Source: a virus (taxonomy: Duplodnaviria > Heunggongvirae > Uroviricota > Caudoviricetes). Taken from it: a stretch of DNA of 64,000 nt. Where the stretch lies: IMG/VR virus record IMGVR_UViG_3300028887_000001, positions 156,088 to 220,087 of that record. The stretch is one strand, 5' to 3'. Below the pieces are notes generated by a model. That model did no database searches, was not told where the DNA came from, and worked only from the letters and a program-made list of their open reading frames with translations. Shown one piece after another: positions 1,540 to 56,330 of the stretch (its first letter is position 1; each line of letters begins with the position of its first letter). The translations under genes were made by a program, and so were the position numbers.

Positions 1540-2988
1540 ATGATACCAAAAATAATACACTATTGTTGGATTAGTGGAGAAGAAAACATGCCAGAAGACA
1601 TCAAAGCCTGTGTTGAGAGTTGGCATAAATACCTTCCTGATTATGAGTTCATAAATTGGAATGACAAAAATTTTGACTGGAACATTTGTGAATTCACAAA
1701 ACACTGTAGGGAAAATAACTTATATGCATTCTGTTCTGACTATGTTAGGTTTTGGGCTCTTTACAATTATGGTGGCATATACCTAGATTGCGATGTGATG
1801 GTTTACAAATCGTTTGATGAGTTGCTTAATTTAAAAAGAATTTTAACAAAGGAAATATATTATAAAGAAAACAACTTTCCAGAGGCAGCAATAATGGGTT
1901 GTGAAAAGGGCGATGTGTTATTTGGTAAAGTTATTGAGTGGTATAATAAAACGAAAAAGAGGTTTGATTTAAATAAATTTGTTGTGTCTCCATATGTAAT
2001 GCGTAGCGTTATCGATAAAAATTACAAGGAAAAAGTTGTTTATTCCCTGGAAGATGTAAAAGATGATGAAAACAAGATATATTTCCTTGACGTTAACAAA
2101 TATTTCGATAGCGATAGTGAGGATGTTTTTGCCAAACATAATTTTAAAAATAGTTGGCACACCAATTTAATCAAAAATTTTCTTAAACACTCCAATTTCA
2201 AAATATTTTTATGCGCTCACAAACCGATTGAAAACTTTTTGCCAAGAAATAAAAGATATGTTATATTGGATGTAACAGGAAATGTTGATAACTCCTGCAA
2301 TGACAACTTTCATGAAATAATCGACATATCAAAAGATGAATTTGTTAAAACCCACAATGTTTGTTATAGTGAAGGGGCTGCAATGAGATATTTATATAAG
2401 CACCCAGATTTAATACCAGATTATATTGGATTCGGCCACTATAGAAGGGTTTTCGTAAGATTTATCGGAATGGAAAACTCAATGCCTAAATTTATTGACA
2501 GGAAAAATGCGATAATAAATACTCCGCTTGATTTCACTACAGATTTTAGGATAAATAACAAGGCTGTGGCGAGATACGACCACCCAAGAGAGGATGTAAA
2601 CGCTTTGATTGAGTGTGTAAAAGAAGTTGCTCCAGAATATTGGGACTCTTTTAATGAGTTTCTTAAAGATAAAAATGGTTATTACTGCAACTGCTTTGCG
2701 ATGAAAAAGGATGACTTCCTTGAAATGTGTGAATTCTGTTTCAGGGTACTTGATAGATTCGATGAGAAACAGGGTTATAAAAACAATGAAGATGTGAGAA
2801 AACACATGGAAAAACTAAGTCAGGAAAAGAAATTAAATATAGATAAGGTAGATTGGCAGTCAAGACTTCAGGGTTTTCTGCTAGAATATTTAACAGACAC
2901 CTTTTATCGCCATAAATCTTGGATTGATGGGTGTTGTAAATCACAGGCAAAAATGCCAATTATGAGTGTAAATACAAATATTTTATGA
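1540..2988 (+). CDS. two-domain glycosyltransferase: N-terminal GT32-like DXD sugar-binding domain plus C-terminal putative galactofuranosyltransferase-like domain
   Basis: N-terminus IIHYCWISGEE...YAFCSDYVRFWALYNYGGIYLDCDVMV is the classic Gly_transf_sug / capsular polysaccharide synthesis DXD region. The C-terminal roughly 250 aa (FLCAHKPIENF...GFGHYRR) is shared with its paralog. glf is immediately downstream. Confidence 0.75.
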   Translation: MIPKIIHYCWISGEENMPEDIKACVESWHKYLPDYEFINWNDKNFDWNICEFTKHCRENNLYAFCSDYVRFWALYNYGGIYLDCDVMVYKSFDELLNLKRILTKEIYYKENNFPEAAIMGCEKGDVLFGKVIEWYNKTKKRFDLNKFVVSPYVMRSVIDKNYKEKVVYSLEDVKDDENKIYFLDVNKYFDSDSEDVFAKHNFKNSWHTNLIKNFLKHSNFKIFLCAHKPIENFLPRNKRYVILDVTGNVDNSCNDNFHEIIDISKDEFVKTHNVCYSEGAAMRYLYKHPDLIPDYIGFGHYRRVFVRFIGMENSMPKFIDRKNAIINTPLDFTTDFRINNKAVARYDHPREDVNALIECVKEVAPEYWDSFNEFLKDKNGYYCNCFAMKKDDFLEMCEFCFRVLDRFDEKQGYKNNEDVRKHMEKLSQEKKLNIDKVDWQSRLQGFLLEYLTDTFYRHKSWIDGCCKSQAKMPIMSVNTNIL

Positions 2989-4478
2989 TACCAAAAATAA
3001 TACACTACTGCTGGATAAGCAGTGAAGAAAACATGCCGGAAGACATTAAATCGTGTTTGGAAAGCTGGAAGAAACATCTTCCTGATTATGAGTTCATAAA
3101 CTGGAATGATGAACGATTTGATTGGAACATTTGTGAATTCACAAAATGGCATAGAGAGCATAATGAGTATGCGTTTTGTTCAGACTATGTTAGGTTTTGG
3201 GCTCTTTACAATTATGGCGGCATATACCTGGATTGTGATGTGATGGTTTACAAATCATTCGATGAATTGCTTAATTTAAAAAGAATTCTAACAAAGGAAT
3301 GGACTTACCGTTACAACAACTATCTTGATGCTGCGATTATTGGATGTGAACAGGGGGATGATGCTTTCAAAAAGATTTTAGACTATTATAATAATTGTGA
3401 CGAGCACTTTACAACTGAAAAAAATACAATTGCTCCCCTTATTATGAAATGGTGCTGGTCTGATTATAAATTTAATCCAATCAATAAACTATCAAATGAA
3501 ATTAAGGATGACAAAACAATAAACATATTGAATGTTGATAAATATTTCAGCGTTTCTAGTGATGAATGCTTTGCACAGCATTGCTTTAAGGGAAGTTGGT
3601 GGAGAAAAACTGAAAAAATAAACTGCCTCAAGACAGATAATATAAAAGTGTTCTTGTGCGCCCATAAGCCAATTGAAAACTTCATCCCAGAAGATAAGAA
3701 ATATGTTATTTTGGCTCAAAATAAGGGTATTTCCTATAAAACAAATGAAATCATCGACATATCAGATGATGAGTTTACAAAATCACACAACGTCTGCTAT
3801 GGTGAAGGGTGTGGTATGAGATATTTGTACAACCACCCAGAATTGATACCAGACTACATTTGCTTTGGGCATTACAGGAGATATTTCACGGAATTTGTTG
3901 GGTGTGAGAGGTTTATGCCGCAAATAATTGACAGTTGTGGCGCAATTGTAAAGAAACCGTTTGACCACACAAATGACGATAGGATTTATAACAAAAGGGG
4001 TATGTATTTTGACCACCCAAGTGATGATATAGACATGTTTATTAAATGTGTTAAATATGTTGCGCCAGAGTATTGGTATACATTCAACGACCTTTTAAAT
4101 GACCATTATCAATATGCTTGCAATATCTTCGCAATGAAAAAAGAAGATTTTCTTGAGATGTGCGAAATGTGTTTCAGTGTTCTTGACCATTTTGACAAGC
4201 TTCAGGGTTATAAAAACAATGAGGATGTGAAGAAGAAAATGGAGAAGAATCCATATATACATAACATGCCATTTGGTTTTGAGTGGCAAATCAGGCTAGA
4301 AGGGTTCCTGTTGGAATGGTTAACAGAACTTTATTATAGGCAAAAGTTTGGCGTTGAAAATTGCTATAAAGCAGAAGTTGGTAATTTATATAACAACAAC
4401 GTTAACATAGATGAAAAATATACTAGTAATAGGAAGTGGCTTAACTGGGGCTACACTAGCCAAAAAGCACAAGGATAA
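2985..4478 (+). CDS. paralogous two-domain glycosyltransferase (tandem duplicate of 1540..2988)
   Basis: The first roughly 105 aa are about 90% identical to the upstream gene at protein and DNA level; the C-terminal domain has diverged. ATGA start/stop overlap at 2985..2988. Confidence 0.75.
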   Translation: MIPKIIHYCWISSEENMPEDIKSCLESWKKHLPDYEFINWNDERFDWNICEFTKWHREHNEYAFCSDYVRFWALYNYGGIYLDCDVMVYKSFDELLNLKRILTKEWTYRYNNYLDAAIIGCEQGDDAFKKILDYYNNCDEHFTTEKNTIAPLIMKWCWSDYKFNPINKLSNEIKDDKTINILNVDKYFSVSSDECFAQHCFKGSWWRKTEKINCLKTDNIKVFLCAHKPIENFIPEDKKYVILAQNKGISYKTNEIIDISDDEFTKSHNVCYGEGCGMRYLYNHPELIPDYICFGHYRRYFTEFVGCERFMPQIIDSCGAIVKKPFDHTNDDRIYNKRGMYFDHPSDDIDMFIKCVKYVAPEYWYTFNDLLNDHYQYACNIFAMKKEDFLEMCEMCFSVLDHFDKLQGYKNNEDVKKKMEKNPYIHNMPFGFEWQIRLEGFLLEWLTELYYRQKFGVENCYKAEVGNLYNNNVNIDEKYTSNRKWLNWGYTSQKAQG

Positions 4479-5442
4479 TGGCGATAGAGTAACGGTTATA
4501 GAAAAGAGAGACCATTTTGGTGGAAACATATACACCGAAAATATTGATGGTATATGTGTTCATAAATATGGTGCACACATATTCCACACTTCTGACAAAG
4601 AGGTGTGGGATTTTGTTAACCAATTTGTGCATTTCAATAACTACAGGCATCAGGTTAAAACAAGATATAATGACAAGCTCTATAGTCTGCCAATAAACAT
4701 GAACACATTCAATGAGTTCTTTAACATATCAAATCCAGATGATATAAAACAGGAACACATTGATAAGATTCACGAGGCTCTTTTCCATGGATATAGTTCA
4801 AAACAATGGGGGAAATCAATCGATGAAATAAATAAAGATGTGTTCAAGAGGTTACCATTAAGAAAAACATTCAACAATGATTATTTTGATGATACATACC
4901 AGGGTATTCCCATTGAAGGATATACAAGCTTAATAGAATCACTATTACAGGGCACAAAAAGAAAAACCGGAATAAAGGTAACCAAAGATTTTGATTTCTC
5001 CACATATGATATAATATATAATACAGGGCCAATTGATGAATTCTTTAATTATGAACTTGGAAAGCTTGAATATAGAAGCCTTGAATTCAGCACAAAGAAA
5101 TTAGAAAAGCAATACTATCAAGATTTTGCTGTCATTAATGAAGCCAATTATGAAGTCAAATATACAAGAACGATTGAACATAAACACTTCAATGATACAA
5201 ACAAAAGCTACACAATAGTAACAAAAGAATACCCAAGACCATATAATGGAGACAATGAACCTTATTATACAATTAATGATGATAAGAATAACACATTATA
5301 TGAAAAATACAAGGAATTGGCAAAGGAAAGGTTTCCTAATATGATATTTTGTGGCAGACTTGGCGCTTATAAGTATTATGACATGGACGATGCAATAAGA
5401 GAAGCATTAAACATATTCTCAAAACAAAAAGAGCAACTTTAA
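4411..5442 (+). CDS. glf: UDP-galactopyranose mutase
   Basis: ILVIGSGLTGATLA...IEKRDHFGGN...HKYGAHIFHT...LPINMNTFNEFF...YQGIP..GYT...YTGPIDEFFNYELGKLEYRSLEF...EPYY.INDDKN...GRLG.YKYYDMD is collinear with bacterial Glf along its full length. Confidence 0.9.
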   Translation: MKNILVIGSGLTGATLAKKHKDNGDRVTVIEKRDHFGGNIYTENIDGICVHKYGAHIFHTSDKEVWDFVNQFVHFNNYRHQVKTRYNDKLYSLPINMNTFNEFFNISNPDDIKQEHIDKIHEALFHGYSSKQWGKSIDEINKDVFKRLPLRKTFNNDYFDDTYQGIPIEGYTSLIESLLQGTKRKTGIKVTKDFDFSTYDIIYNTGPIDEFFNYELGKLEYRSLEFSTKKLEKQYYQDFAVINEANYEVKYTRTIEHKHFNDTNKSYTIVTKEYPRPYNGDNEPYYTINDDKNNTLYEKYKELAKERFPNMIFCGRLGAYKYYDMDDAIREALNIFSKQKEQL

Positions 5443-5460
5443 TCCGGTTGCTCTTTTTAT
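5431..5460. terminator. bidirectional rho-independent terminator
   Basis: Stem gagcaac/gttgctc with a T-run, between the converging glf and nuclease genes; the glf stop codon sits in the loop. Confidence 0.6.
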
Positions 5461-5462
5461 GA

Positions 5463-6335
5463 CTAAATCACATCTTTCAACGTGTCAGTAACATCATCAA
5501 CAGGTATCTTATCATACGTTCCGTCTTCTTTAAGCCATACGATTATCCTATGTGTCATTTTATATCCAAGCTGTTCAAGACACAATGAATACAGGCTTAA
5601 TTGTAATGTATAGTGAGACAGTGATTCGTCAACCATATTATCAAATGGCGGCAATAACATCTTTCCATAAGCTCTATTGTATGAATTTGTCAATGATGCG
5701 TTTGTCTTCCAGTCTGCTAAAAATGGCTTTATAATACCATCTTTTCCCCTTGCTGCGAATAACATGTCAAACGTGCCGCAATAATCATTCTTAAGGTGCA
5801 GCGTATCATTATAACAACTATACACCTTTGCCTCAGGCATTACAGGCCACACATTATGGTTATTAAGCATATCTTCGTAAAACTTTGATGCCGCAATCTG
5901 TTTATTGCCATAAGGTATCAAATAGCCATCTTCAAACTGTCTATGTTTTGTGTATTCAGGCATTTCGTCAAATCTACCTTGAAAGAATAGCATTGCAGCC
6001 TCAGAAAACTCATGAACTATTGTTCCATTAGATGTTGATTTAAGATTATTCTCTCTCCATGCACGTTTCAACACCTCTGGGTCAATACCTTCTTTTGCTG
6101 CTTTCTTTATCCTTATTGCATCCCAATCAACCTCTGGCTCAAATTGCTTTAATACAGAGCTAACTGACGGCAATTCTATAGCATCACCATTTGGCTTATG
6201 TAATAGGTATTTATGTGGTTCTTCAAAGAACTCAAGGTCTTTGAATGCGTCTGTTATTCTATCTCGCATTTCCTTAACCTCTGGTGGTTCTGGACACAAT
6301 GCAAGTCTTGCTTCAATATCTGATACGTGTAACAT
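5463..6335 (-). CDS. PD-(D/E)xK family nuclease (RecB/Cas4/YqaJ-like exonuclease fold)
   Basis: Motif GTFDMLFA...FLADWKT is D...(D/E)xK-like; its position fits a phage recombination exonuclease. Confidence 0.5.
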   Translation of the reverse strand: MLHVSDIEARLALCPEPPEVKEMRDRITDAFKDLEFFEEPHKYLLHKPNGDAIELPSVSSVLKQFEPEVDWDAIRIKKAAKEGIDPEVLKRAWRENNLKSTSNGTIVHEFSEAAMLFFQGRFDEMPEYTKHRQFEDGYLIPYGNKQIAASKFYEDMLNNHNVWPVMPEAKVYSCYNDTLHLKNDYCGTFDMLFAARGKDGIIKPFLADWKTNASLTNSYNRAYGKMLLPPFDNMVDESLSHYTLQLSLYSLCLEQLGYKMTHRIIVWLKEDGTYDKIPVDDVTDTLKDVI

Positions 6336-6338
6336 GAT

Positions 6339-6770
6339 TTAAAGTTTGTTTGACAATTCACGCATATTATTTACATAGCATGTTATTGACTTGTTTGGCG
6401 CAATATTATTAACCAACCTCATAATTGCATCAAATGACTTCCTTTCATGCTTTTCCCAAGTCCCTTCATCCAATACAGCAAACACAACATAATCAACAGA
6501 TGTTCCATACATGTTTGCAAGATGTGCAGAATGAACAATTTCTGCAATTGAATATGTCCCCATCATTTCTTTTGTGATTACATAGAGATGGACATTGCAC
6601 TTGTGATTTTTTTCTTCTTCCTCAACTTCCTGGCATTCTGGTGTCCAATCTTTCACCACTGGGTTGAAGTATTCAATACCCTTTTCATCCAAAAGCGGCA
6701 TTAATTCGTCTCTCCATGTTGTTTCGGCACATGTGCCACCCAAAAACATTCTAATTTTAATATTTTCCAT
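6339..6770 (-). CDS. nucleoside 2-deoxyribosyltransferase-like / dNMP N-hydrolase-like fold protein
   Basis: N-terminal KIRMFLGG and a GTYSIAEIVHSA segment resemble the G-T-x-x-E-x-G catalytic Glu region of NDT/Rcl-family enzymes. Only 17 nt downstream of the IMPDH-like gene and 3 nt upstream of the nuclease start. Confidence 0.4.
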   Translation of the reverse strand: MENIKIRMFLGGTCAETTWRDELMPLLDEKGIEYFNPVVKDWTPECQEVEEEEKNHKCNVHLYVITKEMMGTYSIAEIVHSAHLANMYGTSVDYVVFAVLDEGTWEKHERKSFDAIMRLVNNIAPNKSITCYVNNMRELSNKL

Positions 6771-6787
6771 ATAATTATAATTATAAT

Positions 6788-7948
6788 TTATTTATTAATT
6801 GCTGCTTGTTCTCTTTGGCTTAATAATCTTGTTTCAACATTTTCTGGGTTGAAATCGTTTACATCCGTTACATCACAATAAGACATCGCTGATGCGAGGA
6901 AATCATTCATGTTTTCTGTCCACTTTTTTATAGATGTCTTACATTCAAGTATAACTTCCTTACCTTCTGAAGTCCTCTTCTTCTTCCCAAATAAATCAAT
7001 TTGGCCCTGCTTTGATGCCATGCCATAAAACCTTTTATAGAGTTTTTTTACTTGAATTGAACAGACTGGTTCATTCTTAGCATCCAATGATGTAATTTGG
7101 AAAACACCATCATTTTCTTCAATGACAGTATTTTTATCAAATTGGTCAACAAAATTCTTTTCACGAAGCTCAACATGACCTACTGTTGAAAAATAGAATG
7201 TTTCTGCACAAGATTCAATTAGGGAAGATAACAGCCCACCAATCATAACATAATCTGCGCCAAGTGCTAAAGCTTTATTTACATCATCATAATTCCTAAT
7301 ACCACCATCAGCAATAATCTTGGTCACACACTTATAAGATGTAAAAAGGTTCTGAATATCAGATTCAACTTCCTTCTTTTGCTTATATGTTTCATTTATT
7401 AGGGTTGCAATACCCATATGAACCCCTAAATTACTTGCAGAAAGGCAACCAGCGCCAGAACCAATGGCCAACCTAACATAATCAATCCCAGCCCTACAAT
7501 ATTCCTTATATGTTTCTGGATTTGAAATGTTTCCAGTCATCAAAATAATGTTATTGCCATATTTTTCCTTTGCTTGCTTTGCAATTTCAAAAATTGTTGT
7601 TAAATTGCCCTTTGCCAGGTCAATACAAATTTTTGTTTCTGGGTTAACAGATTCATTTTCACTGACAAAAGTTTTGAATTCATTTAATGAATATGAAACC
7701 CAAATACCGCTTTTTACTAATTCATTTCTTTTTTCTATATTTACTGTTCTTGGTATAATTGGAATTATGCCATTGTCTTTAAACACCTTGTAGTTTTTTT
7801 CATTTAATACAGAACTCATTGGTGCTGTGAATATCGGCAACATTCCGTCCTTCTTTGTGTTACACTCAGAACGATGTTCAACATCACTTGTTATGGCGTC
7901 GAGTATGCATACATCACCATATCCATAAGTCATTTCTTCTTTAAACAT
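6788..7948 (-). CDS. IMP dehydrogenase / GMP reductase family TIM-barrel protein
   Basis: PIFTAPMSSV, the GSGAGCLSAS loop containing the catalytic Cys, and ADGGIRNYDDVNKALALGADYVMIGG match IMPDH/GuaC signature regions. Confidence 0.65.
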   Translation of the reverse strand: MFKEEMTYGYGDVCILDAITSDVEHRSECNTKKDGMLPIFTAPMSSVLNEKNYKVFKDNGIIPIIPRTVNIEKRNELVKSGIWVSYSLNEFKTFVSENESVNPETKICIDLAKGNLTTIFEIAKQAKEKYGNNIILMTGNISNPETYKEYCRAGIDYVRLAIGSGAGCLSASNLGVHMGIATLINETYKQKKEVESDIQNLFTSYKCVTKIIADGGIRNYDDVNKALALGADYVMIGGLLSSLIESCAETFYFSTVGHVELREKNFVDQFDKNTVIEENDGVFQITSLDAKNEPVCSIQVKKLYKRFYGMASKQGQIDLFGKKKRTSEGKEVILECKTSIKKWTENMNDFLASAMSYCDVTDVNDFNPENVETRLLSQREQAAINK

Positions 7949-7971
7949 ATCTCAATTCTTTTATAATTTCA

Positions 7972-7993
7972 TGGCAAAGATACTAAAAAAAAA
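7972..7993 (-). promoter_or_regulatory. conserved promoter motif (minus-strand TTTTAGTATCTTTGCC)
   Basis: Forward tggcaaagatactaaaaaaaaa lies about 25 nt upstream of the 7948 start. Confidence 0.55.
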
Positions 7994-8002
7994 TGACATA
8001 AT

Positions 8003-8034
8003 AAAAAAAAGACCCCAAAATTAATTGAGGTCTT
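8003..8034 (-). terminator. rho-independent terminator
   Basis: Minus strand reads aagacc...ggtctt hairpin followed by T8. Confidence 0.55.
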
Positions 8035-8098: not shown

Positions 8099-9616
8099 CT
8101 AATATTCACCGGCATCGATTACCATTCTTTTCACATCTTCAACCCAATCATAATATGTACCAAAAATAATTTCTTGATTCCCAAACTCATCTTCAATACA
8201 GGTACATTCTATGATTTTATAATAGTCAGATGTGCCTCTATAGTATAAATCACCATCACCCCCTGTAATAAGATTGAATTTATCACCGTTGTTCAATTGC
8301 TTTGAGTCCCAATATTGTCCGTTCCAATGACTAAGTATGCATTTATAAAGCGTGATTGGAATTTCATCGTTATCAGACAAACCCCTCTGAGCAATAAAAT
8401 CATCACCACCGTTTATTTCTCTATCATAATCAATTAATACACAATTTGATTCACCGGAAACAGAAAGAGAATTAGAGTCAAAATTAAGATTTATTGCAAT
8501 CCACGCTTGTTTTAACTCTGGGAAGTTTATCACTTTATATGTATTTCCAAGAATATTCTCAAAGTCACTAGCATAATCACCACAAATATCTCTAACAAGT
8601 CTTATTGAACACCAAACATCACCAGTGTCAAAGAATTGGAAAACACCATCACTATCTGAAGTAAACCCTTTAATGAAATTGTGTCCAGGTTCGTATTCTG
8701 TATCAGTCCAGAAACCACACATTGTGCTTATACCATTTGCTGATGATGCTGAAATGTATCCACTTGGTGTTGCAAAGAATCCATATAAATCAAGGTTTTC
8801 ATTGCCTTGCCAATAATCAACGCTCTTGAGCATTTTTCCACACACTTCACCTTGTGCATCTTCAATGGAAACGGAATCACCACTGATAACATCATCACAG
8901 ACATCTGCATATGTAAGTAGTTTGTCCCAATCTTCTTGTGTTGGGACTCTCCAAGCACTTAATTCTCTTGCAAGGGCCTCTTTTACTGCCTCCAAACCTT
9001 CTTTTGAATACAATCTACCAAATAGAGAAAATGGTTCATAATGAACAACTCTATAACCTATTTCTGGTTCTTCAAATGAACCAGAACCCTTCTGTTGATT
9101 TTTTTCGTTGTAACCGCCTTTCGGCACAAGTTCATTAACAGTCTTATAGTATCCTGTTTTTTCGACATTTGATATTCCAAGAGGATTACATTCAGTTCCT
9201 GCGCCATGAAGTGTTGAATCGTGTACCGAACCACCTTGCGAATCTTCACAAAGGAAACCACTTATAGTTGTTGAGTGTTCTCCTGATGTATCCGTCCAGT
9301 TAAGTGTTAATATACCATCATCAGACAAGCTTCCGTTTAAATTAATATCAATTGATTGTGGCGTTAATCCAGAAACAAGTTCTTCTAATTTTTCATCAAA
9401 TTCATCACGAACACACGAAATATCCACACTTATCTCATCTCCGTTGTTTCTGATAATGTCAATAATCATGTTTTCGCAATCGAATGTCGCTGCGCTTATG
9501 TCATTATCCTTGAATGCCAGAAAATTATCATCAATATCAGCCGTTGTGAGTTTACAATTCATTGTAACGTCTTCTGGATATGGTGATACGAGTTTATAAA
9601 ACTTTATGCTTTCCAT
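8099..9616 (-). CDS. hypothetical protein (505 aa), possible virion or tail-associated protein
   Basis: Long ORF rich in Gly/Asp/Ser, no enzymatic motifs; forms a pair with the downstream 494-aa ORF. Confidence 0.4.
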   Translation of the reverse strand: MESIKFYKLVSPYPEDVTMNCKLTTADIDDNFLAFKDNDISAATFDCENMIIDIIRNNGDEISVDISCVRDEFDEKLEELVSGLTPQSIDINLNGSLSDDGILTLNWTDTSGEHSTTISGFLCEDSQGGSVHDSTLHGAGTECNPLGISNVEKTGYYKTVNELVPKGGYNEKNQQKGSGSFEEPEIGYRVVHYEPFSLFGRLYSKEGLEAVKEALARELSAWRVPTQEDWDKLLTYADVCDDVISGDSVSIEDAQGEVCGKMLKSVDYWQGNENLDLYGFFATPSGYISASSANGISTMCGFWTDTEYEPGHNFIKGFTSDSDGVFQFFDTGDVWCSIRLVRDICGDYASDFENILGNTYKVINFPELKQAWIAINLNFDSNSLSVSGESNCVLIDYDREINGGDDFIAQRGLSDNDEIPITLYKCILSHWNGQYWDSKQLNNGDKFNLITGGDGDLYYRGTSDYYKIIECTCIEDEFGNQEIIFGTYYDWVEDVKRMVIDAGEY

Positions 9617-12570: not shown

Positions 12571-12589
12571 TGCATTAATCGTTAAATCC

Positions 12590-12612
12590 GGTGCAAAATT
12601 ACTAAAATTTTT
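12590..12612 (-). promoter_or_regulatory. conserved promoter motif
   Basis: Forward ggtgcaaaattactaaaattttt lies about 20 nt upstream of the 12570 start. Confidence 0.55.
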
Positions 12613-12734: not shown

Positions 12735-13766
12735 TTACTTGCCATCAGCATTTTCTACAATAACAATTCGATTTGATGCGTTTCCGACAGAACCATAACC
12801 AACTGCACTCTTAACATCAACACCCTTTTCCTTAAGGTATTCGGCAACAACATCTGCTCTCTTTTGTGAAAGTTTCTGGTTATAGGTTTTTGTTCCTTCT
12901 GGTGAAGCATAACCAAGAATGTCTACGGAACCAGCAACCTTATCGAGAACTTCCTTTGCTGCATCATTAAGTACATAGCTGTTCTGTGCAAAATTAACAA
13001 CAAATGTGTTATTTACGTATTCAACCTTTTCAACGACCTTTTCCCTAACCTTTGTTACAACAACCCTTTCTGGCTTCTTCTCAAGCGCATCCTTCTGACT
13101 TAGGTTTTCTGAATAAAGTCTGTTAAGCTCTGCCGACATTGCACCAACATCATATACCTTGAAGTGATGTGTTCCATTAGAAGTCTTAAAGTGGTATACA
13201 TAGCCAGCCATAAGAGCAAGTTGTGCGTGTTCCTTGTTGAACTGAACTGTGTTATTGTTCTTCAAGTTCCAATAAACGCCTGGGCTAACAAACAATGTAT
13301 GTGCCTTCTTCTTTCCAAGGTTAAAGTTGAAATCAAGTGCTGTCTTTGCACTGAGGCCATCGCCACTCTTCCAGAAGTGAAGCCATCCCATGCCAACATT
13401 TGTCTTTACCTCAAACAAACGAGGGGTTCCCTTATAACCACAGAAAAGATTATTAAGGTTAACAGTACCGTTTACGGTAAGATTTGTACCCTTTACGAAT
13501 GTCTGTGTCCAGCGTTGGAAATTGTTGTCATTGAAGAACACCTGTGCTTCAACCTCCGCACCAAAAATAGGTGTAAGCTCCTTACCAACCTTAAGACCCG
13601 CTACAGTGTTAAGTGGAAACACACCATCAAAATTGAGAGGTGTTGCCACACCAATTTCTGCACCAGCATAAACGTTGTCAAACAACTTTGCATTCTCTGT
13701 TGCAAGCTGTGCGCTTGCAATCGTCATGGTTGCAAAAGCAACCAAAGTCAAAATAAACTTTTTCAT
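12735..13766 (-). CDS. OmpA-family outer-membrane protein (signal peptide plus C-terminal OmpA peptidoglycan-binding domain)
   Basis: N-terminus MKKFILTLVAFATMTIASAQ. C-terminus NSYVLNDAAKEVLDKVA...ILGYASPEGTKTYNQKLSQKRADVVAEYL is the OmpA_C motif. Confidence 0.75.
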   Translation of the reverse strand: MKKFILTLVAFATMTIASAQLATENAKLFDNVYAGAEIGVATPLNFDGVFPLNTVAGLKVGKELTPIFGAEVEAQVFFNDNNFQRWTQTFVKGTNLTVNGTVNLNNLFCGYKGTPRLFEVKTNVGMGWLHFWKSGDGLSAKTALDFNFNLGKKKAHTLFVSPGVYWNLKNNNTVQFNKEHAQLALMAGYVYHFKTSNGTHHFKVYDVGAMSAELNRLYSENLSQKDALEKKPERVVVTKVREKVVEKVEYVNNTFVVNFAQNSYVLNDAAKEVLDKVAGSVDILGYASPEGTKTYNQKLSQKRADVVAEYLKEKGVDVKSAVGYGSVGNASNRIVIVENADGK

Positions 13767-14503: not shown

Positions 14504-15184
14504 TTAATTTTCAAACCACCAAATTAATTCACTATTAATGCTAACCTTTAATTCCCCCATACTCTTCCACTCGTCCCAATAATCTTCAAGGTATTCGTCA
14601 TCAGACTTATGTATGTCACTGAAGAACTCATCAACATCTGATTCGTTTACTGGTTTAATAATAATGGAGGCGTCGCCATTACAAAACCTTACAATTTTAG
14701 CAGGAATTCCTTTATATTTGATTCTTCTCCCAACACAATTTTTATCGAATTCATATGAACACAAATCTAACGGGTGTTCTGGATATTCTGTCATTTTACA
14801 CTGTGCTTGAGCCACGCCATAGTACATATCCCTTGTTACGAACCTTTCAAATATCTCACCATTCCTTAAGATGTCAATTTGACACCTTGAAGAAGCCTCT
14901 GTTTCATCCCACTTTGTTTTTGATGTTGTTTTTTCAACAACCTTGAAACCCCATTCACAAGCAACACCATCGAATTGAATTAAGTTCTCATATGTTGGTT
15001 CCTCAAATCTAGGACATGCCCATGCATAGTCATGTCTACCACCTATTGAATGGTTATATTCACCATCGTCATCATATGCAAAAAACACCTTATAAGGTTC
15101 TCCATTTACCCTTGCATCCCAACTTAGTTCGTGCAAAACTTTCTTCAGGTCTGTGCTTTCATCTATAAGCCTTATTTCACTCAT
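14504..15184 (-). CDS. hypothetical protein (226 aa), translationally coupled to the Stealth-like gene
   Basis: ATGA start/stop overlap at 15181..15184 with the upstream gene. Confidence 0.45.
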   Translation of the reverse strand: MSEIRLIDESTDLKKVLHELSWDARVNGEPYKVFFAYDDDGEYNHSIGGRHDYAWACPRFEEPTYENLIQFDGVACEWGFKVVEKTTSKTKWDETEASSRCQIDILRNGEIFERFVTRDMYYGVAQAQCKMTEYPEHPLDLCSYEFDKNCVGRRIKYKGIPAKIVRFCNGDASIIIKPVNESDVDEFFSDIHKSDDEYLEDYWDEWKSMGELKVSINSELIWWFEN

Positions 15185-16098
15185 TGTTGTTCCAATATTT
15201 TAGTCATTAAATCTTCCAGAAGTGATTTTGTTTCTGAAACCATTTCTTGCGTTACCCACCATGCGTCATTAATACATTCAACATCGTTTAAGTAATTCAT
15301 TTTACCACCTAAAACGGATTTTAACCAATTATTTAATTCATCATCGCCAACACTTCTAAAACAAAATTTATATGGTAACTTTTCATCAAACACCAATTCA
15401 TTCTTCAAGCCATACATAAGATACAAGTCCATATTCATGTTATTAAAGTATCTTACCGTATGTAATGAACCCATTATAAACCTTTCATATTTGCAATAAC
15501 ATTCTTCACACAGAGATTTCGTCAGTGGCCTTAATGTGTGTTGTGTATAACAAACCTGTGAATAATCACTATTATTTGACCTCCTGTCATAAACCAAATT
15601 TGTTGCATTCGACATGTGTAGGTCATATAAACAATTGTTTGGGCATTTCTTCCAGTTGAAAGACGCTCTCGGCTTGCCATCCTTAAAGAAATATTCTTTG
15701 AACAATGGTTTCATTGGAATCATGTCATCATTTCCGTATATGAAGTATTCAGAAAGACCAGGTATTCTCCACATGAAAAGTTCAATACAAGCCGATGAGA
15801 AGGTTATATAGCCATTCGGCATGAATTCAGACTCATTAACCCTGATAATCCTACCGCTTGATTCATTAATCAATTTAATTGTAGAATCTGGGAGAACCTG
15901 AACGTCTTTACACACCAAATACACCTTATTTATAAAGTTAAGGTTTTTCAGTATCAATTTCAATGTTAGTGTTATGTCTATGTAGTTAGAATTCACATTA
16001 CTATTGTATTCCAGCCCAGTTACATTTTCATATAAATCACGAACATCATCATCGGAATAATCACAATAACTAATGATATAATCTATCGGTTTATCCAT
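15181..16098 (-). CDS. Stealth-family-like hexose-1-phosphoryl transferase candidate (capsule phosphotransferase-like)
   Basis: IDYIISYCDYSDDD (CR1-like), LKLILKNLNFINKVYLV (CR2-like) and FIYGNDDMIP (CR3 NDD-like) resemble the Stealth conserved regions from memory. Needs an HMM check. Confidence 0.4.
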   Translation of the reverse strand: MDKPIDYIISYCDYSDDDVRDLYENVTGLEYNSNVNSNYIDITLTLKLILKNLNFINKVYLVCKDVQVLPDSTIKLINESSGRIIRVNESEFMPNGYITFSSACIELFMWRIPGLSEYFIYGNDDMIPMKPLFKEYFFKDGKPRASFNWKKCPNNCLYDLHMSNATNLVYDRRSNNSDYSQVCYTQHTLRPLTKSLCEECYCKYERFIMGSLHTVRYFNNMNMDLYLMYGLKNELVFDEKLPYKFCFRSVGDDELNNWLKSVLGGKMNYLNDVECINDAWWVTQEMVSETKSLLEDLMTKILEQQ

Positions 16099-25902: not shown

Positions 25903-28410
25903 TTAACATTTCTCCACTTTTGCAACCACTTCATTGTTCTCATCAACGGTAACACTATATGAACTTTTATGCTTATTGCTCGATAATACAAGGTCAACAA
26001 CTTTATCTGATATATTGTCTTGTATAATCCTCATTATTGGCCTTGCACCATACTCTTTTTGCTCTAACGCTTGCTTATAAACATATTCTACAATCTTGTC
26101 ATCGTATTTGAGTTCTATATTATTTTCCTTTACCCTGTTACACAGCTTATTTAATTCGATACCGACAATTGTATGTATATTGTCGTCTGTTAATGCGTTA
26201 AAATGGACAATCTTGTCAATTCTATTAAGGAACTCTGGATTGAACTTTGATTTAAGGCTCTTTTCAATTATGGCTCTCTTGTTTTCATCCTCATTCCTAA
26301 TAAATCCGATTCCGCCTCCAAGTTCGGTTGCTTTCTTCGCACCAACATTTGATGTCATAATAACAATTACATTCTTGAAGTTAACTGTCGTTCCGTTATT
26401 GTCTGTTAATCTGCCCTCATCAAACAGTTGGAGAAATAGGTTATAAATACTTTCGTCTGCCTTCTCAATTTCATCAAACAACAGCACACAATACGGCTTA
26501 TTCTTAATGGCTTCTGTTAGCAAACCACCATTGTCATAACCAACATATCCAGCACTCGCACCAATTAGTTTATTGATTGCAGATTTATCCTGATATTCAC
26601 TCATGTCAAAACGAACAAGACAATCTTCACTTCCAAATATGTTTTCTGCCAGCTTCTTTGAAATTAATGTCTTTCCTATGCCACTTTGTCCAAGAAACAA
26701 CAATGTTGCCATAACCTTTGACTTATCACCGAATCCAGCCCTGGCTCTTTTTATCGCCTTTGATATTTCTTCTATCGCTTCATCCTGACCAATCACATCC
26801 TTCTTCAATATATCAGATATGTGCAGTATCGTTTCCTTTTCGTTGGCCTTTAATTTTGATACTGGTATGTTGCTTATTGTGGAAACCGTTACGGCAATAT
26901 CGTCTTCAGTTGCTTTTAACCAAGTCGAATCATCTTTATTTATATCTCTCTTTATATCACTTAATTCCTTATTTATTGCGCTTTCTTTTTTTGATATTTC
27001 ATCAAGTTTCTCAAAATCGCCACAATTCATTGCGGTAATCTTCTCTTCATCCATCTTAGAAAGCTTCTCTTTGAGTTTCTTAATGCTTTTTTCTTGCCTG
27101 TTATTTAATGATATGCTTGCACCAGTAAGGTCTATAACATCAATTGCAGAATCTGGTAAATTATTGTTTGTTATGTACCTTTTTGCAAGGGTTATTGTCT
27201 TATAAAGAACATCGTCATTGAATTTAACGTGATGGAAATTCTCATAATATGATTTATTGTGCTTTAAGATTTCAAATGTTTCTTCCTTTGTTGATGGTTC
27301 GACAATTATCTTCTGTAGTTTTGTTGAGAGTGCTGAATTATTCTCAATTCCGTTTCTGTAATCCTTGAACGATATGGTTCCAACAACTCTTACATCACCC
27401 TCAGAAAGGATTTTACCGATAACATCTGTCAGGTCTCCATCTTTATCCTTTCCAGTGTTTCTTACAACATTTTGCATGTCATCTATAAAGAGGATATAAT
27501 TTGGATTATTCTTTAATTCCCTGAATAAACCATCAACACGCTCTTCAAACATACCCCTTAAGTGTGTGCCACTAATGAGAGCCATAACATCAAGCATAAT
27601 AACCTGTTTTCCAGTTAATATCTCAGGAACATTTCCATTGTCAATCATTTCAGCAAGCTTATAACCAATACTTGTCTTACCAACACCAGGTTTACCAACC
27701 AATATTACATTGTTCTTCTTTCTCCTTGATAAAACCTTTATAATGTTGTTTAAGATATCATCCCTTCCAATAAGTTTGTCATAATGGCCATTGATTATCT
27801 CATCGTGAAGATTAATTGTATACTTATTGATGTTTGGAGTTGCACCATTTCTTACTGGTGTTGTAGCATGAATTTCTGACTTTAATGGTATTTTTGTATC
27901 ATTATGGTTATTATTGATATAACGTCTTCTGTTTTGCTCGTTGGAACTTTCTTCCTCAATCTCACCAACCTTTTCTTCAACGTAATCATATTGCAGACCA
28001 GACTTTAATAGTTCCCTTGCACAATTAAATTCATAATCCCTGTTAATCAACGCCAACAAGACATGTTCGGTTCCAACAATACTTACATCCCTTGCTGATG
28101 CTTCCTTACCGGAACAAACCATTAACTGCGTCAACTCTTTGTTAAACCTTTTCTCCTGGTTATCAAGCAATGGCTTCCTCTTATATGACTTTATCTCATC
28201 ATAATAATACTGACGAAGATATTCCATATTCTCAGACATCAAAACATTATCCATTATAATATTAGCATGGCATGTTGCATTGTCAAGAATAGACAATATT
28301 AGATATTCCGCAGTATATTCGTTTGTCGGAAACTCATTATTTAATACCTCATCAATATAATTTAAAACATCAATAAGTTCTTGTGAATTCTTTATTTCCA
28401 TTTCTCCCAA
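25903..28410 (-). CDS. ClpA/ClpB/ClpC-family Hsp100 AAA+ chaperone (two ATPase domains, Clp N-domain, coiled-coil middle region)
   Basis: D1 Walker A LVGKPGVGKTS, D2 Walker A FLGQSGIGKTL, sensor GYVGYDNGG, ClpB-like LIGRDDIL signature, coiled-coil insert between D1 and D2. Confidence 0.8.
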   Translation of the reverse strand: MGEMEIKNSQELIDVLNYIDEVLNNEFPTNEYTAEYLILSILDNATCHANIIMDNVLMSENMEYLRQYYYDEIKSYKRKPLLDNQEKRFNKELTQLMVCSGKEASARDVSIVGTEHVLLALINRDYEFNCARELLKSGLQYDYVEEKVGEIEEESSNEQNRRRYINNNHNDTKIPLKSEIHATTPVRNGATPNINKYTINLHDEIINGHYDKLIGRDDILNNIIKVLSRRKKNNVILVGKPGVGKTSIGYKLAEMIDNGNVPEILTGKQVIMLDVMALISGTHLRGMFEERVDGLFRELKNNPNYILFIDDMQNVVRNTGKDKDGDLTDVIGKILSEGDVRVVGTISFKDYRNGIENNSALSTKLQKIIVEPSTKEETFEILKHNKSYYENFHHVKFNDDVLYKTITLAKRYITNNNLPDSAIDVIDLTGASISLNNRQEKSIKKLKEKLSKMDEEKITAMNCGDFEKLDEISKKESAINKELSDIKRDINKDDSTWLKATEDDIAVTVSTISNIPVSKLKANEKETILHISDILKKDVIGQDEAIEEISKAIKRARAGFGDKSKVMATLLFLGQSGIGKTLISKKLAENIFGSEDCLVRFDMSEYQDKSAINKLIGASAGYVGYDNGGLLTEAIKNKPYCVLLFDEIEKADESIYNLFLQLFDEGRLTDNNGTTVNFKNVIVIMTSNVGAKKATELGGGIGFIRNEDENKRAIIEKSLKSKFNPEFLNRIDKIVHFNALTDDNIHTIVGIELNKLCNRVKENNIELKYDDKIVEYVYKQALEQKEYGARPIMRIIQDNISDKVVDLVLSSNKHKSSYSVTVDENNEVVAKVEKC

Positions 28411-28432: not shown

Positions 28433-29512
28433 TTAGCCAACGGAAAGTGGCATTTTTATTGTTGGATAACTCTCATAACCCTCTATTTTTATATCTTCAT
28501 ACTCAAACATGTCAATATCCTTTACAATTGGATTTAATTTCAATGTTGGCAATGAATATTTGTGCGGGTCTCTTGTTAACTGCTCATCAACACCCTCCAT
28601 TTGATTAAGATATATGTGGCAATCACATCCATTCCAGATAACTTCGTCTGGAACCATATTTACACACTGAGCTACCATTGAAAGCAATAAACTTGCTGAC
28701 ATTATGTTTGCCGGTGTTCCTAATGCCATATCCTGACTCCTACACATAAACCATAACGATAAAGCGTATTTTGGACAGCCGTATTCATCCATTGTTTGTT
28801 CTGTTGGTGCCAACCATTCTGGATTAATATTATCCTGGCACCACTCAACCCTTTCCATATGTTCCAATGGTCTAGCATTAAACATGTATATTGTATGACA
28901 TGGTGGCAATGCTACATCGTAAATAACATCAGGGTTATAACCAGTAAGCAACATTCTCCTGTCAAAAGGATTCTTTTTAAGGGTGTTAATTATCATTTGG
29001 ATTTGGTCAACATCATTTTCACCCCAGTGTCTCCATTGTTTCCCATATACAGGCCCAAGGTCACCATAAGTGTATTGAATCTGAACAAGATTTCCGTGGT
29101 AATTCTTTTTTACTGCCAGTTTAATACTCTCCTGATTTTTTACTTTTTCTATAAACTCATCCATACTAATACCGAGTTCAAGAGGAGAATTATTAACAAG
29201 GCTTAGATGCTTTTTTACAAGTTCATTGTAGAACCTATACGCATCAGGTGTCCAGAAATTAACCCCATTATCAATGAGATACTTGATGTTCGTATCCCCC
29301 TTTAGGAACCAAAGCAATTCATGGATAAATCCCTTCATGAACATTTTCTTTGTCGTTAATACAGGAAATCCATACTTTAATTGAAATCTCATTGACATTC
29401 CAAATAAAGATAAAACATCACCACTTCGTGTGTGCTTTAATACACCTTCATTTTTGATTCTCTTGAGACAATCCAGGTATTGAGAATCAACGAAATTACT
29501 TATTCCGCTCAT
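28433..29512 (-). CDS. thyA: thymidylate synthase family enzyme (ThyA fold) with two insertions; dUMP-specific Asn retained
   Basis: LWFLKGDTN, GDLGPVYGKQWR, RRMLLTGYNP, LPPCH catalytic Cys, SQDMALGTPANIMSASLL, CDCHIYLNQ, and C-terminus IEGYESYPTIKMPLSVG are collinear with E. coli ThyA. At 359 aa versus 264 it carries about 50-aa and about 30-aa insertions. Confidence 0.8.
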   Translation of the reverse strand: MSGISNFVDSQYLDCLKRIKNEGVLKHTRSGDVLSLFGMSMRFQLKYGFPVLTTKKMFMKGFIHELLWFLKGDTNIKYLIDNGVNFWTPDAYRFYNELVKKHLSLVNNSPLELGISMDEFIEKVKNQESIKLAVKKNYHGNLVQIQYTYGDLGPVYGKQWRHWGENDVDQIQMIINTLKKNPFDRRMLLTGYNPDVIYDVALPPCHTIYMFNARPLEHMERVEWCQDNINPEWLAPTEQTMDEYGCPKYALSLWFMCRSQDMALGTPANIMSASLLLSMVAQCVNMVPDEVIWNGCDCHIYLNQMEGVDEQLTRDPHKYSLPTLKLNPIVKDIDMFEYEDIKIEGYESYPTIKMPLSVG

Positions 29513-30225: not shown

Positions 30226-30263
30226 TTTTATTTCAACATTTTTTATATTATAATTAAAATTAC

Positions 30264-30286
30264 GATGCAAAAGTACTAAAAATATT
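30264..30286 (-). promoter_or_regulatory. conserved promoter motif
   Basis: Forward gatgcaaaagtactaaaaatatt. Confidence 0.55.
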
Positions 30287-30617: not shown

Positions 30618-30640
30618 GTTTTAGTACCTTTGCACTGAAA
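30618..30640 (+). promoter_or_regulatory. conserved promoter motif in plus orientation (TTTTAGTACCTTTGCACTG) with a -33 TTTG about 20 bp upstream
   Basis: Located about 20 nt upstream of the ATG at 30660. Confidence 0.6.
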
Positions 30641-31603: not shown

Positions 31604-32422
31604 ATGAAAAGATTTTTTAATTTGTTACTTTTAACAAGCATTTTGTTCTGTTTGACTTCTTGTCATTTTGTGTCCCCTGACGCTGGTGAGGAAGCGGTAT
31701 TAATTTACAAACCATGGATTTTTGGCCATGGAAGCGTTGACAAAGACCCCGTAAAGACAGGTTTAACGTGGTGTGTGTTTTCAACATCGTCTGAAACATT
31801 CAAGATTATTCCTCAGAAACAGCAAGTGGATATGGAAGACCTTGTATCAAACGATAACACACCTCTTGATTTCCACACTGTAATCATCACACAGATTAAG
31901 GAAGGGAAAACCCCAATTCTGCTTGAAAATTACGGCAAAGACTGGTTTAGTACAAACCTGTATAACCACTATTGTAATAGAGTCCGTGATTATGTATCTC
32001 AGCATTCACCATTCGACCTTATGTCAAACAGAGAAGTATTAAATGAAATTGATAGAAAGGTTCTTAAGGAAATGCAGAATTATGTTTCTGAGTTATCAAA
32101 TGAAAAGGAGTTCCCTGTCGTAATTAAGAATGTGATTATTGGTCGCGCAATCCCAAACACAGAACAACTCGAAGAAATGAATCGCACAGCAAAGGCTGTA
32201 CAGGCAAAACAGACACAAGAAAGAGAGGCTGAGGTTCAGGAAGCAAGAGAAAAGGCTGAACGTTTGAGGGCAATTGCTGACAAGGCATATAGAACAGAAC
32301 TTGGATTAAGCGCAGAAGACTTTATCGCTCTTAAATGGATTGAAACAATCGAAAAGAAACAGGGGGCAAATATTGATGTTATGGTTGGGCCAGCAACATC
32401 AATGTGGAATGTAAGGAGATAA
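31604..32422 (+). CDS. SPFH/band-7 domain lipoprotein (prohibitin/HflC-like)
   Basis: Lipoprotein signal LLLTSILFCLTSC, followed by a band-7 core and C-terminal coiled coil AKAVQAKQTQEREAEVQEAREKAERLRAIADKAYR. Confidence 0.65.
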   Translation: MKRFFNLLLLTSILFCLTSCHFVSPDAGEEAVLIYKPWIFGHGSVDKDPVKTGLTWCVFSTSSETFKIIPQKQQVDMEDLVSNDNTPLDFHTVIITQIKEGKTPILLENYGKDWFSTNLYNHYCNRVRDYVSQHSPFDLMSNREVLNEIDRKVLKEMQNYVSELSNEKEFPVVIKNVIIGRAIPNTEQLEEMNRTAKAVQAKQTQEREAEVQEAREKAERLRAIADKAYRTELGLSAEDFIALKWIETIEKKQGANIDVMVGPATSMWNVRR

Positions 32423-34226: not shown

Positions 34227-34250
34227 CTTTTTAGTATCTTTGTAATGAAT
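34227..34250 (+). promoter_or_regulatory. conserved promoter motif in plus orientation (TTTTTAGTATCTTTGTAATG)
   Basis: Lies about 210 nt upstream of the next gene, so it may drive a leader or small RNA. Confidence 0.5.
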
Positions 34251-54750: not shown

Positions 54751-54766
54751 ATCTAATTCTAAAAAT

Positions 54767-54790
54767 CATTGCAAAAATACTAAAATTATC
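54767..54790 (-). promoter_or_regulatory. conserved promoter motif
   Basis: Forward cattgcaaaaatactaaaattatc. Confidence 0.55.
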
Positions 54791-56303: not shown

Positions 56304-56330
56304 ATTAGTATTTTTGCACCGAAAAATGCA
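56304..56330 (+). promoter_or_regulatory. conserved promoter motif in plus orientation (TTAGTATTTTTGCACCG)
   Basis: Located about 10 nt upstream of the ATG at 56339. Confidence 0.55.

Follow-up and report, generated by a model that had tools for sequence, protein, structure and literature searches.

Phage-borne GMP reductases have already been annotated (PMC7029224, PMC11299810), and a canonical nucleoside 2-deoxyribosyltransferase (NDT) of Pfam family PF05014 has been linked experimentally to diaminopurine (dZ) phages, in which it depletes dA and co-occurs with DatZ, PurZ and DNA polymerase A (bioRxiv 10.1101/2025.10.22.683976). In the literature we found no link between a GMP reductase and an NDT-like gene in phages and no mention of the family PF15891; the papers on phage G and on the Jug jumbo phages do not discuss these genes, and the term 'NDT-like' in the phage literature refers mostly to retron effectors. 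Here we analyze an operon in which a GMP-reductase-like gene, a PF15891 gene and a nuclease gene follow one another on the minus strand of a 64,000-nucleotide (nt) stretch of DNA (the window) from a virus of the Caudoviricetes (IMG/VR record IMGVR_UViG_3300028887_000001, positions 156,088 to 220,087). The original prediction for this locus was a phage purine salvage or purine-modification route rather than housekeeping. We favor a different reading, to which we assign a probability of roughly 55%: the operon is a real transcription unit that encodes three separately useful nucleotide- or DNA-handling proteins and not a conserved pathway. The window has a GC content of ~34%, and its nearest relatives in the databases are the Prevotella Lak megaphages and other uncultured phages of 460-640 kb (32-38% protein identity), with closer metagenomic relatives among contigs of about 100-310 kb. 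The source is a large phage distantly related to the Lak megaphages and, judging from the promoter type and the relatives, its host is probably a (gut) Bacteroidota.

The predicted products of the operon are a GMP-reductase-like barrel of the IMPDH/GMPR superfamily without CBS domains (gene 1, 7948..6788, 386 amino acids (aa)), a PF15891 protein, 'nucleoside 2-deoxyribosyltransferase-like' (gene 2, 6770..6339, 143 aa), and a PD-(D/E)xK exonuclease (gene 3, 6335..5463, 290 aa). The genes are packed as tightly as had been claimed, with gaps of 17 nt between genes 1 and 2 and 3 nt between genes 2 and 3, and because each of them has hundreds to thousands of homologues, none is a chance open reading frame (ORF). 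A promoter motif, TAGTATCTTTGCCATGAA (7968..7985, minus strand), stands ~20 nt upstream of the gene 1 ATG and belongs to a set of nine matches to TAGTAnnTTTGCnnnGAA across the window (0.11 expected by chance); this upholds the claim of one conserved promoter, and in a looser scan the extended motif precedes many other window genes. The element TAnnTTTG within TAGTATCTTTGCCATGAA is the Bacteroidota -7 promoter box. The 5' boundary of the unit is marked by a terminator-like hairpin with a T-run (8009..8034, minus strand; a 10-pair stem with 4 GC pairs, followed by TTTTTTATTA) that closes the upstream gene (8099..9616). At the other end, a terminator hairpin (at about 5460..5424; 5419..5460 with its U-run, minus strand) begins 3 nt past the gene 3 stop codon. 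Its 14-bp stem folds with -16.2 kcal/mol (z -4.19; 0/200 shuffles fold as well) and also ends the convergent plus-strand UDP-galactopyranose mutase gene; the first hairpin scan missed it because its loop is 9 nt long. Inside the three-gene unit, motif and hairpin scans found neither a further copy of the promoter motif nor a terminator. As far as sequence can show, the three genes are therefore confirmed as a genuine operon that runs from a single promoter to a terminator.

We then asked whether the trio is kept together, using two sets of loci, 92 surrounding homologues of gene 1 and 79 surrounding NDT-like homologues, 56 of the latter distinct (a viral-contig search with gene 1 alone yielded no loci, and the family alignment was needed to collect them). 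Only 3 of the 92 gene 1 loci have an NDT-like gene no more than 10 kb away (L001, L171 and L172, with gene 1 identities of 72-78%; L001 has its NDT-like gene on the opposite strand), and this adjacency is absent at a locus with a 95%-identical gene 1. No homologue of gene 1 or of gene 3 lies within 6 kb in any of the 79 NDT-like loci. Where both genes do occur in one genome they can be far apart: about 150-265 kb in three IMG/VR contigs of 236-435 kb, and about 90 kb in all 15 Lak genomes, Lak-A, Lak-B and Lak-C among them. In the phage database, no named organism group besides Lak appeared in both hit lists (two further groups in the gene 1 list carried no name). In 12 of the 92 loci, down to about 45% gene 1 identity, gene 1 is followed by the gene 3 nuclease, and the space between them in relatives is taken up by nothing, by a DUF723 gene, by small ORFs or by an NDT-like gene; wherever the latter is present in the window's lineage, it abuts the nuclease. 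Genes 1 and 2 are the least conserved of the three possible pairs. Because the neighbourhoods of gene 1, the NDT-like gene and the nuclease differ among relatives, the combination seen in the window appears to be a recent, lineage-specific mosaic and not a conserved pathway. Its ancestor would have been a block of gene 1 followed by the nuclease; the closest relatives have an NDT-like gene right beside the nuclease, and other cargo (small ORFs, the DUF723 gene, an intein) would have drifted in and out between the genes.

Mobile elements were also seen near the gene 1/nuclease block of relatives (L003:771-2682, L169:9157-10843, L003:7175-8857, L002:8613-10316 and L173:1679-3352). They comprise IS605-type OrfB/TnpB genes, accompanied by either a Y1 transposase or a resolvase, as well as repeated DUF723 genes, the one found between gene 1 and the nuclease in a relative being an insertion. 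The presence of these elements around the block suggests a recombination hot-spot.

These comparisons bear directly on the dedicated purine route, in which the nuclease would free nucleotides from the nucleic acid of the host, the NDT-like enzyme would release or exchange their purine bases and the GMPR-like barrel would interconvert the purines, so as to rebalance the pool or to supply phage DNA with a non-canonical purine. Such a route would fit the tight packing behind one promoter, the fact that all three families act on nucleotides or DNA, the PF05014 precedent in diaminopurine phages (bioRxiv 10.1101/2025.10.22.683976) and the low GC content of the genome, for which G-to-A conversion would make sense. 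However, both locus sets leave it without comparative support: adjacency of the gene 1/NDT-like pair, the very co-occurrence in other phages that was to be checked, is confined to the three loci named above and is lost even next to an almost identical gene 1, while in Lak, the only named group with both families, the two genes are widely separated. The precedent itself belongs to a different Pfam family, and the 43 window ORFs that were scanned contained none of the PurZ, DatZ and DNA polymerase A genes of the dZ-phage setting, nor any further gene for base modification. We therefore consider a dedicated purine route unlikely. The phrase 'rather than housekeeping' is doubtful as well, as gene 1 homologues elsewhere sit among genes for thymidylate synthase, ribonucleotide reductase (RNR) and dUTPase. 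More generally, the comparison cautions against taking a tightly packed operon in a mosaic phage genome, on that ground alone, as the sign of a pathway.

The family assigned to gene 1 was borne out. The GSGAGCLSAS loop with the catalytic Cys occupies residues 163-172 and the ADGGIR segment residues 213-218; Pfam IMPDH (PF00478) matches at 3e-31 (109.1 bits, cut-off 25.6), PHROG 9582 'dehydrogenase' matches at 1.9e-46, and the search for CBS domains gave no match at E <= 1. The protein falls into the IMPDH/GMPR superfamily and not into a non-nucleotide TIM-barrel family. Matches to three families of the latter kind (FMN_dh, NanE and His_biosynth) cover only the shared phosphate-binding segment, residues 206-247, and these candidates were discarded.

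Within the superfamily, the sequence comparisons indicate that gene 1 most likely encodes a GMP reductase-type enzyme, resembling GMPR rather than IMPDH. Its best NCBIfam models are those of type-2 GMP reductase, which align nearly end to end (PRK05458, 99 bits against a cut-off of 344; TIGR01306, 90.8 against 465.65), while the IMPDH equivalog TIGR01302 (84 bits against 481.5) aligns only with residues 107-253; a further GuaC model, PRK05096, gives 81.9 bits against 397. Because the curated equivalog scores were not reached, we call the protein GMPR-like and not a certified GuaC orthologue. The best match in the PDB is 1ypf, the GMP reductase of Bacillus anthracis, at 7e-18 with the single sequence and at 1.2e-35 with a profile of the 35-sequence family. 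The family consensus 'FYGMAS...GQ...G.KK.TSEG' (FYGMAS being residues 307-312) aligns with 'FYGMSS...ASEGK' of human GMPR2, in contrast to 'YRGMGS...RY...PEG' of IMPDH. Among the 35 homologues (44-95% identical), C168 and A213-D-G are kept in all and G216 and R218 in 34; E328, which aligns with the Glu of human GMPR2 ASEGK, is invariant (35/35). Position 170 is Thr in 21 homologues and Ser in 14, and the window protein has Ser170. The catalytic triad of E. coli GuaC is C186, T188 and E289; a candidate triad of the GMPR type, Cys168/Ser170/Glu328, is present in gene 1. The short flap (residues 313-327, KQGQIDLFGKKKRTS) showed no conserved Arg-Tyr among the 35 homologues. In the AlphaFold model (pLDDT 89.6) the protein forms an IMPDH-type barrel with a TM-score of about 0.7 to IMPDH catalytic domains, and six beta-strands at residues 249-307 take the place of the short hairpin of 1ypf.

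Gene 1 could instead encode an IMP dehydrogenase, which would turn IMP into XMP and raise the supply of guanine nucleotides. The Pfam match carries the IMPDH name and the top Foldseek matches are IMPDH catalytic domains, but Foldseek cannot split IMPDH from GMPR for this protein, since the PDB is dominated by IMPDH entries and the ranking reflects their number. The catalytic Cys loop and ADGGIR, though they agree with IMPDH, are common to both enzymes. What tells the two apart is the lack of the Arg-Tyr dyad and of a CBS domain, the shortness of the flap, the FYGMAS and SEGK motifs, which match GMPR and not the YRGMGS of IMPDH, and the IMPDH equivalog itself, which aligns with the core alone and stays at 84 bits where 481 are needed; on these grounds we hold IMP dehydrogenase activity to be very improbable.

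The surroundings of gene 1 offer yet another substrate. A set of glycosylation genes adjoins the operon (window positions 1540-2988, 2985-4478, 4411-5442 and 15181-16098), made up of two paralogous glycosyltransferases (Gly_transf_sug DXD region plus DUF4422), the UDP-galactopyranose mutase and a Stealth CR2 protein, which points to synthesis or modification of a galactofuranose (Galf)-containing glycan encoded by the phage. If gene 1 were tied to these genes, its substrate would be related to a sugar nucleotide. Glycosyltransferases and UDP-galactopyranose mutase likewise adjoin the operon's counterparts in L169 and L172. Beyond the window's clade, a Glyco_tranf_2_5 glycosyltransferase-like gene is present no more than 10 kb from gene 1 in ~26 loci, directly 3' of it in L014 and L015 (e.g. 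L014:11210-11905); these belong to a different large-phage clade, in which L012-L020 and about 25 further gene 1 loci are surrounded by GT2- and GT4-like genes. In total, a glycosyltransferase-like gene was found within 10 kb in 38 of the 92 gene 1 loci and in 0 of the 79 NDT-like loci, a count that is biased in that the glycosyltransferase queries were drawn from gene 1 loci. The loci come from only two clades, so that shared ancestry can explain the pattern; moreover, the glycosylation genes of the window are on the opposite strand as a separate unit, and all purine-nucleotide-binding motifs of GMPR are intact in gene 1. A link of gene 1 to glycosylation is therefore extremely improbable.

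The protein of gene 2 matches PF15891 (46.3 bits, cut-off 30), in line with the family first proposed for it, and has no match to PF05014. The family is large: 620 homologues were found through a word index, and 1543 representative clusters match at E <= 0.001. Members are encoded by each of the 15 Lak genomes, by several Pseudomonas, Serratia and Erwinia jumbo phages, and by one Clostridioides phage. The fold is of the alpha/beta type seen in NDTs, and the structure is about as near to TIR domains as to NDTs. Nine residues (F9, L10, G11, G12, R20, P37, W42, E50 and E77) are invariant in 51 diverse homologues. The original prediction had rested in part on a G-T-x-x-E motif, and a literal GTCAE does exist at residues 12-16, but its Glu is found in only 10 of the 51 homologues. 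The invariant Glu is instead E77 (51/51), within G71-T-Y-S-I-A-E77, and it is a candidate nucleophile by topology; the protein thus does have a putative catalytic Glu, albeit at another place. In the model, E77 starts helix 3 after strand 3, the position of E98 in NDT and E104 in DNPH1; E50, on the preceding helix, takes the position of NDT D72; and F9, in strand 1, stands where the catalytic Tyr is found (NDT Y7, DNPH1 Y24), the latter placement made by aligning FLGGT by hand with YFCGS and YFGAG. That E77, E50 and F9 correspond to the triad of NDT is a match by topology and manual alignment only. As references we used DNPH1 and NDT sequences identical to PDB chains 4p5e and 1f8x, and engineered variants in the PDB mark the sites of the superfamily (E104Q in DNPH1; Y7F and D72N in NDT). 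The active site of DNPH1 further includes, in its own numbering, Tyr24 and Asp80.

At the profile level, gene 2 stands apart. Searches of the PDB with phmmer and with the 51-sequence profile returned only noise, hhalign gave probabilities no higher than 1% for human DNPH1 and for the aligned pair of L. leichmannii NDT and L. helveticus PDT, and tblastn of DNPH1 against the phage database found 0 matches. Nevertheless, fold and conserved residues suggest that gene 2 most likely encodes an N-glycosidase acting on a nucleotide or nucleoside. The CMP N-glycosidases MilB and BcmB also have Phe at the position of Phe9, and Sikowitz et al. are reported to have found that Phe in place of Tyr makes MilB/BcmB prefer ribo- over deoxyribonucleotides. 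By this analogy gene 2 would cleave an N-glycosidic bond via Glu77, possibly on a ribo-type nucleotide.

In some homologues the gene 2 domain occurs as 2-3 tandem copies per polypeptide, and in others it is fused to RusA (twice), to a PNKP-type HAD phosphatase, to an Rv2179c-like (DEDD-type) exonuclease or to a 2H/Acb1-like phosphoesterase, with a weak case of fusion to DHH/DHHA1 (multi-domain homologues P0364, P0378, P0409, P0426, P0430, P0432, P0433, P0451 and P0466). Some of these fusions could be gene-calling artefacts. Many viral loci contain two or more NDT-like ORFs, 104 being counted in 78 loci. Taken with the widely varying neighbours of gene 2, its likeness to TIR domains and its spread among jumbo phages, the tandem domains, the additional copies and the 2H/Acb1-like and DHH/DHHA1 fusions could speak for a counter-defence factor: gene 2, perhaps with gene 3, would bind or cleave a nucleotide-derived immune signal or an NAD-related molecule, and its place in the operon would be incidental. 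Yet PADLOC found no significant defence-system match for the proteins of genes 1, 2 and 3, most of the fusion partners are DNA or RNA end-processing enzymes and not signalling proteins, and PF15891 has no experimental precedent in counter-defence, which makes this role improbable. The fusions can also be read as a general partnership with nucleic-acid-processing enzymes (RusA, the DEDD exonuclease, PNKP-type and 2H/Acb1-like). The NDT-like gene and the abutting nuclease would then be a two-gene cassette plugged in behind the GMPR-like enzyme, its PF15891-type protein would be a ribo-nucleotide N-glycosidase acting on breakdown products of host nucleic acid or on a nucleotide-derived immune signal, and host guanine nucleotides would be destroyed or turned into adenine nucleotides for the AT-rich genome. 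We regard this arrangement as decidedly unlikely.

The nuclease assigned to gene 3 is supported both by its PD-(D/E)xK motifs and by a match to PHROG 298 'exonuclease' (2.9e-23). The motifs are D190, D208-W-K210 and Q245-x3-Y249, and D190, D208, K210, Q245 and Y249 are invariant in 34 homologues. Pfam PDDEXK_1 reached at best 0.03 on this family, in 2 of the 34 members, and gene 3 itself had no significant match in Pfam or, by sequence, in the PDB. Homologues are annotated as exonuclease in Flavobacterium phages and are also present in Bacteroides phages; their neighbourhoods in both were uninformative. We infer from the motifs that gene 3 encodes a RecB/Cas4-like PD-(D/E)xK exonuclease, which would serve in recombination or DNA degradation. 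Relatives with the 95%-identical gene 1 have an interrupted gene 3 homologue, a 630-aa ORF (L169:6166-8058 and L170:2784-4676), with an insertion of ~340 aa that falls exactly after DWK and contains a LAGLIDADG_3 domain, and which we read as a putative intein. Inteins are typically placed in active-site motifs, and a site right after DWK fits a catalytic role of D-x-K in gene 3.

Taken together, each of the three genes is a further member of a known family and the operon itself is ordinary. In the reading we prefer, that of three separately useful proteins in one transcription unit, the chemistry of gene 1 would follow GuaC: Cys168 would attack C2 of GMP, Ser170 and Glu328 would aid the departure of ammonia, and NADPH would reduce the Cys168 thioimidate to give IMP. 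This scheme is inferred from the conserved residues. The net effect would be a flow of guanine nucleotides to IMP and on to AMP, and the recycling of host nucleic acid with G shifted to A is plausible as a loose common theme of the three proteins in an AT-rich phage, but there is no requirement for them to act in sequence. Several points weigh against our reading. Real functional coupling could lie behind the tight co-transcription and behind the abutment, seen in 4 lineages, of NDT-like gene and nuclease. Gene 1 misses all curated GuaC/GuaB cut-offs (344-780 bits) by far and contains a family-specific, beta-rich insertion of ~45 aa at about residues 249-300; with these low scores, the insertion and Ser170 in place of Thr, its substrate could differ (dGMP or another purine nucleotide). 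Even so, none of the four rivals (the purine route, counter-defence, IMP dehydrogenase and glycosylation) is better supported. Should gene 1 encode a working GMP reductase, it would be one more, expected, case of a large phage retuning the purine pool of its host, here toward adenine. The main remaining interest lies in the families PHROG 9582 and PF15891, neither of which has a characterised member; PF15891 is widespread in jumbo phages and megaphages and has a sharply conserved pocket (F9, R20, W42, E50 and E77).

The rest of the window includes genes for a deoxynucleoside monophosphate kinase, a thymidylate synthase, a UvrD-type helicase, a ClpB-like ATPase, and Mre11-like, Rad50-like and primase-like proteins. 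Strict copies of the promoter-like motif tTTTAGTAnnTTTGCAnnGAAAt are found, on both strands overall and 20-35 nt 5' of start codons, at 1435-1452, 7968-7985 (that of the operon), 12587-12604, 30261-30278, 30622-30639, 34232-34249, 41907-41924, 54765-54782 and 56306-56323, and looser copies at about 16128, 24244, 25832, 34439 and 38769. One looser copy stands 5' of a tRNA-Gln gene (38660-38732). The thymidylate synthase (28433-29512) is 359 aa long, and its match to the 266-position Pfam profile extends over residues 11-358, which implies ~80-90 aa of insertions. Unusual phage cargo is found at 12735-13766 (an OmpA-family protein with an N-terminal beta-barrel-like region), 25903-28410 (a full two-ring ClpB-type AAA+ chaperone) and 31604-32422 (an SPFH/Band 7 protein); a Band 7 protein also occurs near the gene 1 homologue in L171.

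Finally, we compared the three proteins with the described systems closest to them. Gene 3 shares the motif set D...D-x-K...Q-x3-Y with PHROG 298 and RecB/Cas4-type nucleases; it differs from the Cas4 type in that it has no cysteine cluster, and no annealing-protein partner adjoins it. Gene 2 and the PF05014 enzyme of dZ phages are both phage enzymes of the NDT fold, the latter proposed to reshape the purine pool, but they belong to different Pfam families. Compared with the NDT superfamily at large (NDT, 1f8x; DNPH1/Rcl, 4p5e and 2khz; the CMP N-glycosidases MilB/BcmB, 4ohr and 4jen; YtoQ, 8of6; BDI_0649, 4mcj), gene 2 differs by Phe9 in place of the catalytic Tyr, by the further invariant residues W19, R20, W42 and K54 and by the absence of a profile-level link. 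Gene 1 is set apart from type-2 GMP reductase (GuaC of Firmicutes; 1ypf; PRK05458/TIGR01306) by an identity of about 20%, by the ~45-aa insertion and by a longer helix at residues 184-208. It has in common with this enzyme the CBS-less (beta/alpha)8 barrel with a short flap, the N-terminal RSEC motif, the GxGxGC loop with a hydroxyl residue at +2, ADGGIR, the (F/Y)(Y/F)G-x-(A/S)-S motif and the EGK glutamate. Its counterparts in PHROG 9582 (Bacillus phage G gp120, Staphylococcus phage 42E ORF012, crAss-like cr108_1 gp050 and the Lak homologues; 27-38% identity to gene 1) are, like gene 1, accessory genes of phage nucleotide metabolism. In those phages they stand beside genes for thymidylate synthase, dihydrofolate reductase (DHFR), RNR or an integrase and not beside an NDT-like gene or this nuclease. 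Gp120 of phage G, annotated as a guanosine 5'-monophosphate oxidoreductase, is near ThyA, DHFR and MazG. In crAss-like cr108_1 (locus L005; NC_055878.1 66625-67656), the homologue overlaps the 3' end of the thymidylate synthase gene in a module with RNR, dUTPase, DNA polymerase I and thioredoxin, and this is the clearest contextual support for a role of the gene 1 family in the nucleotide pool.

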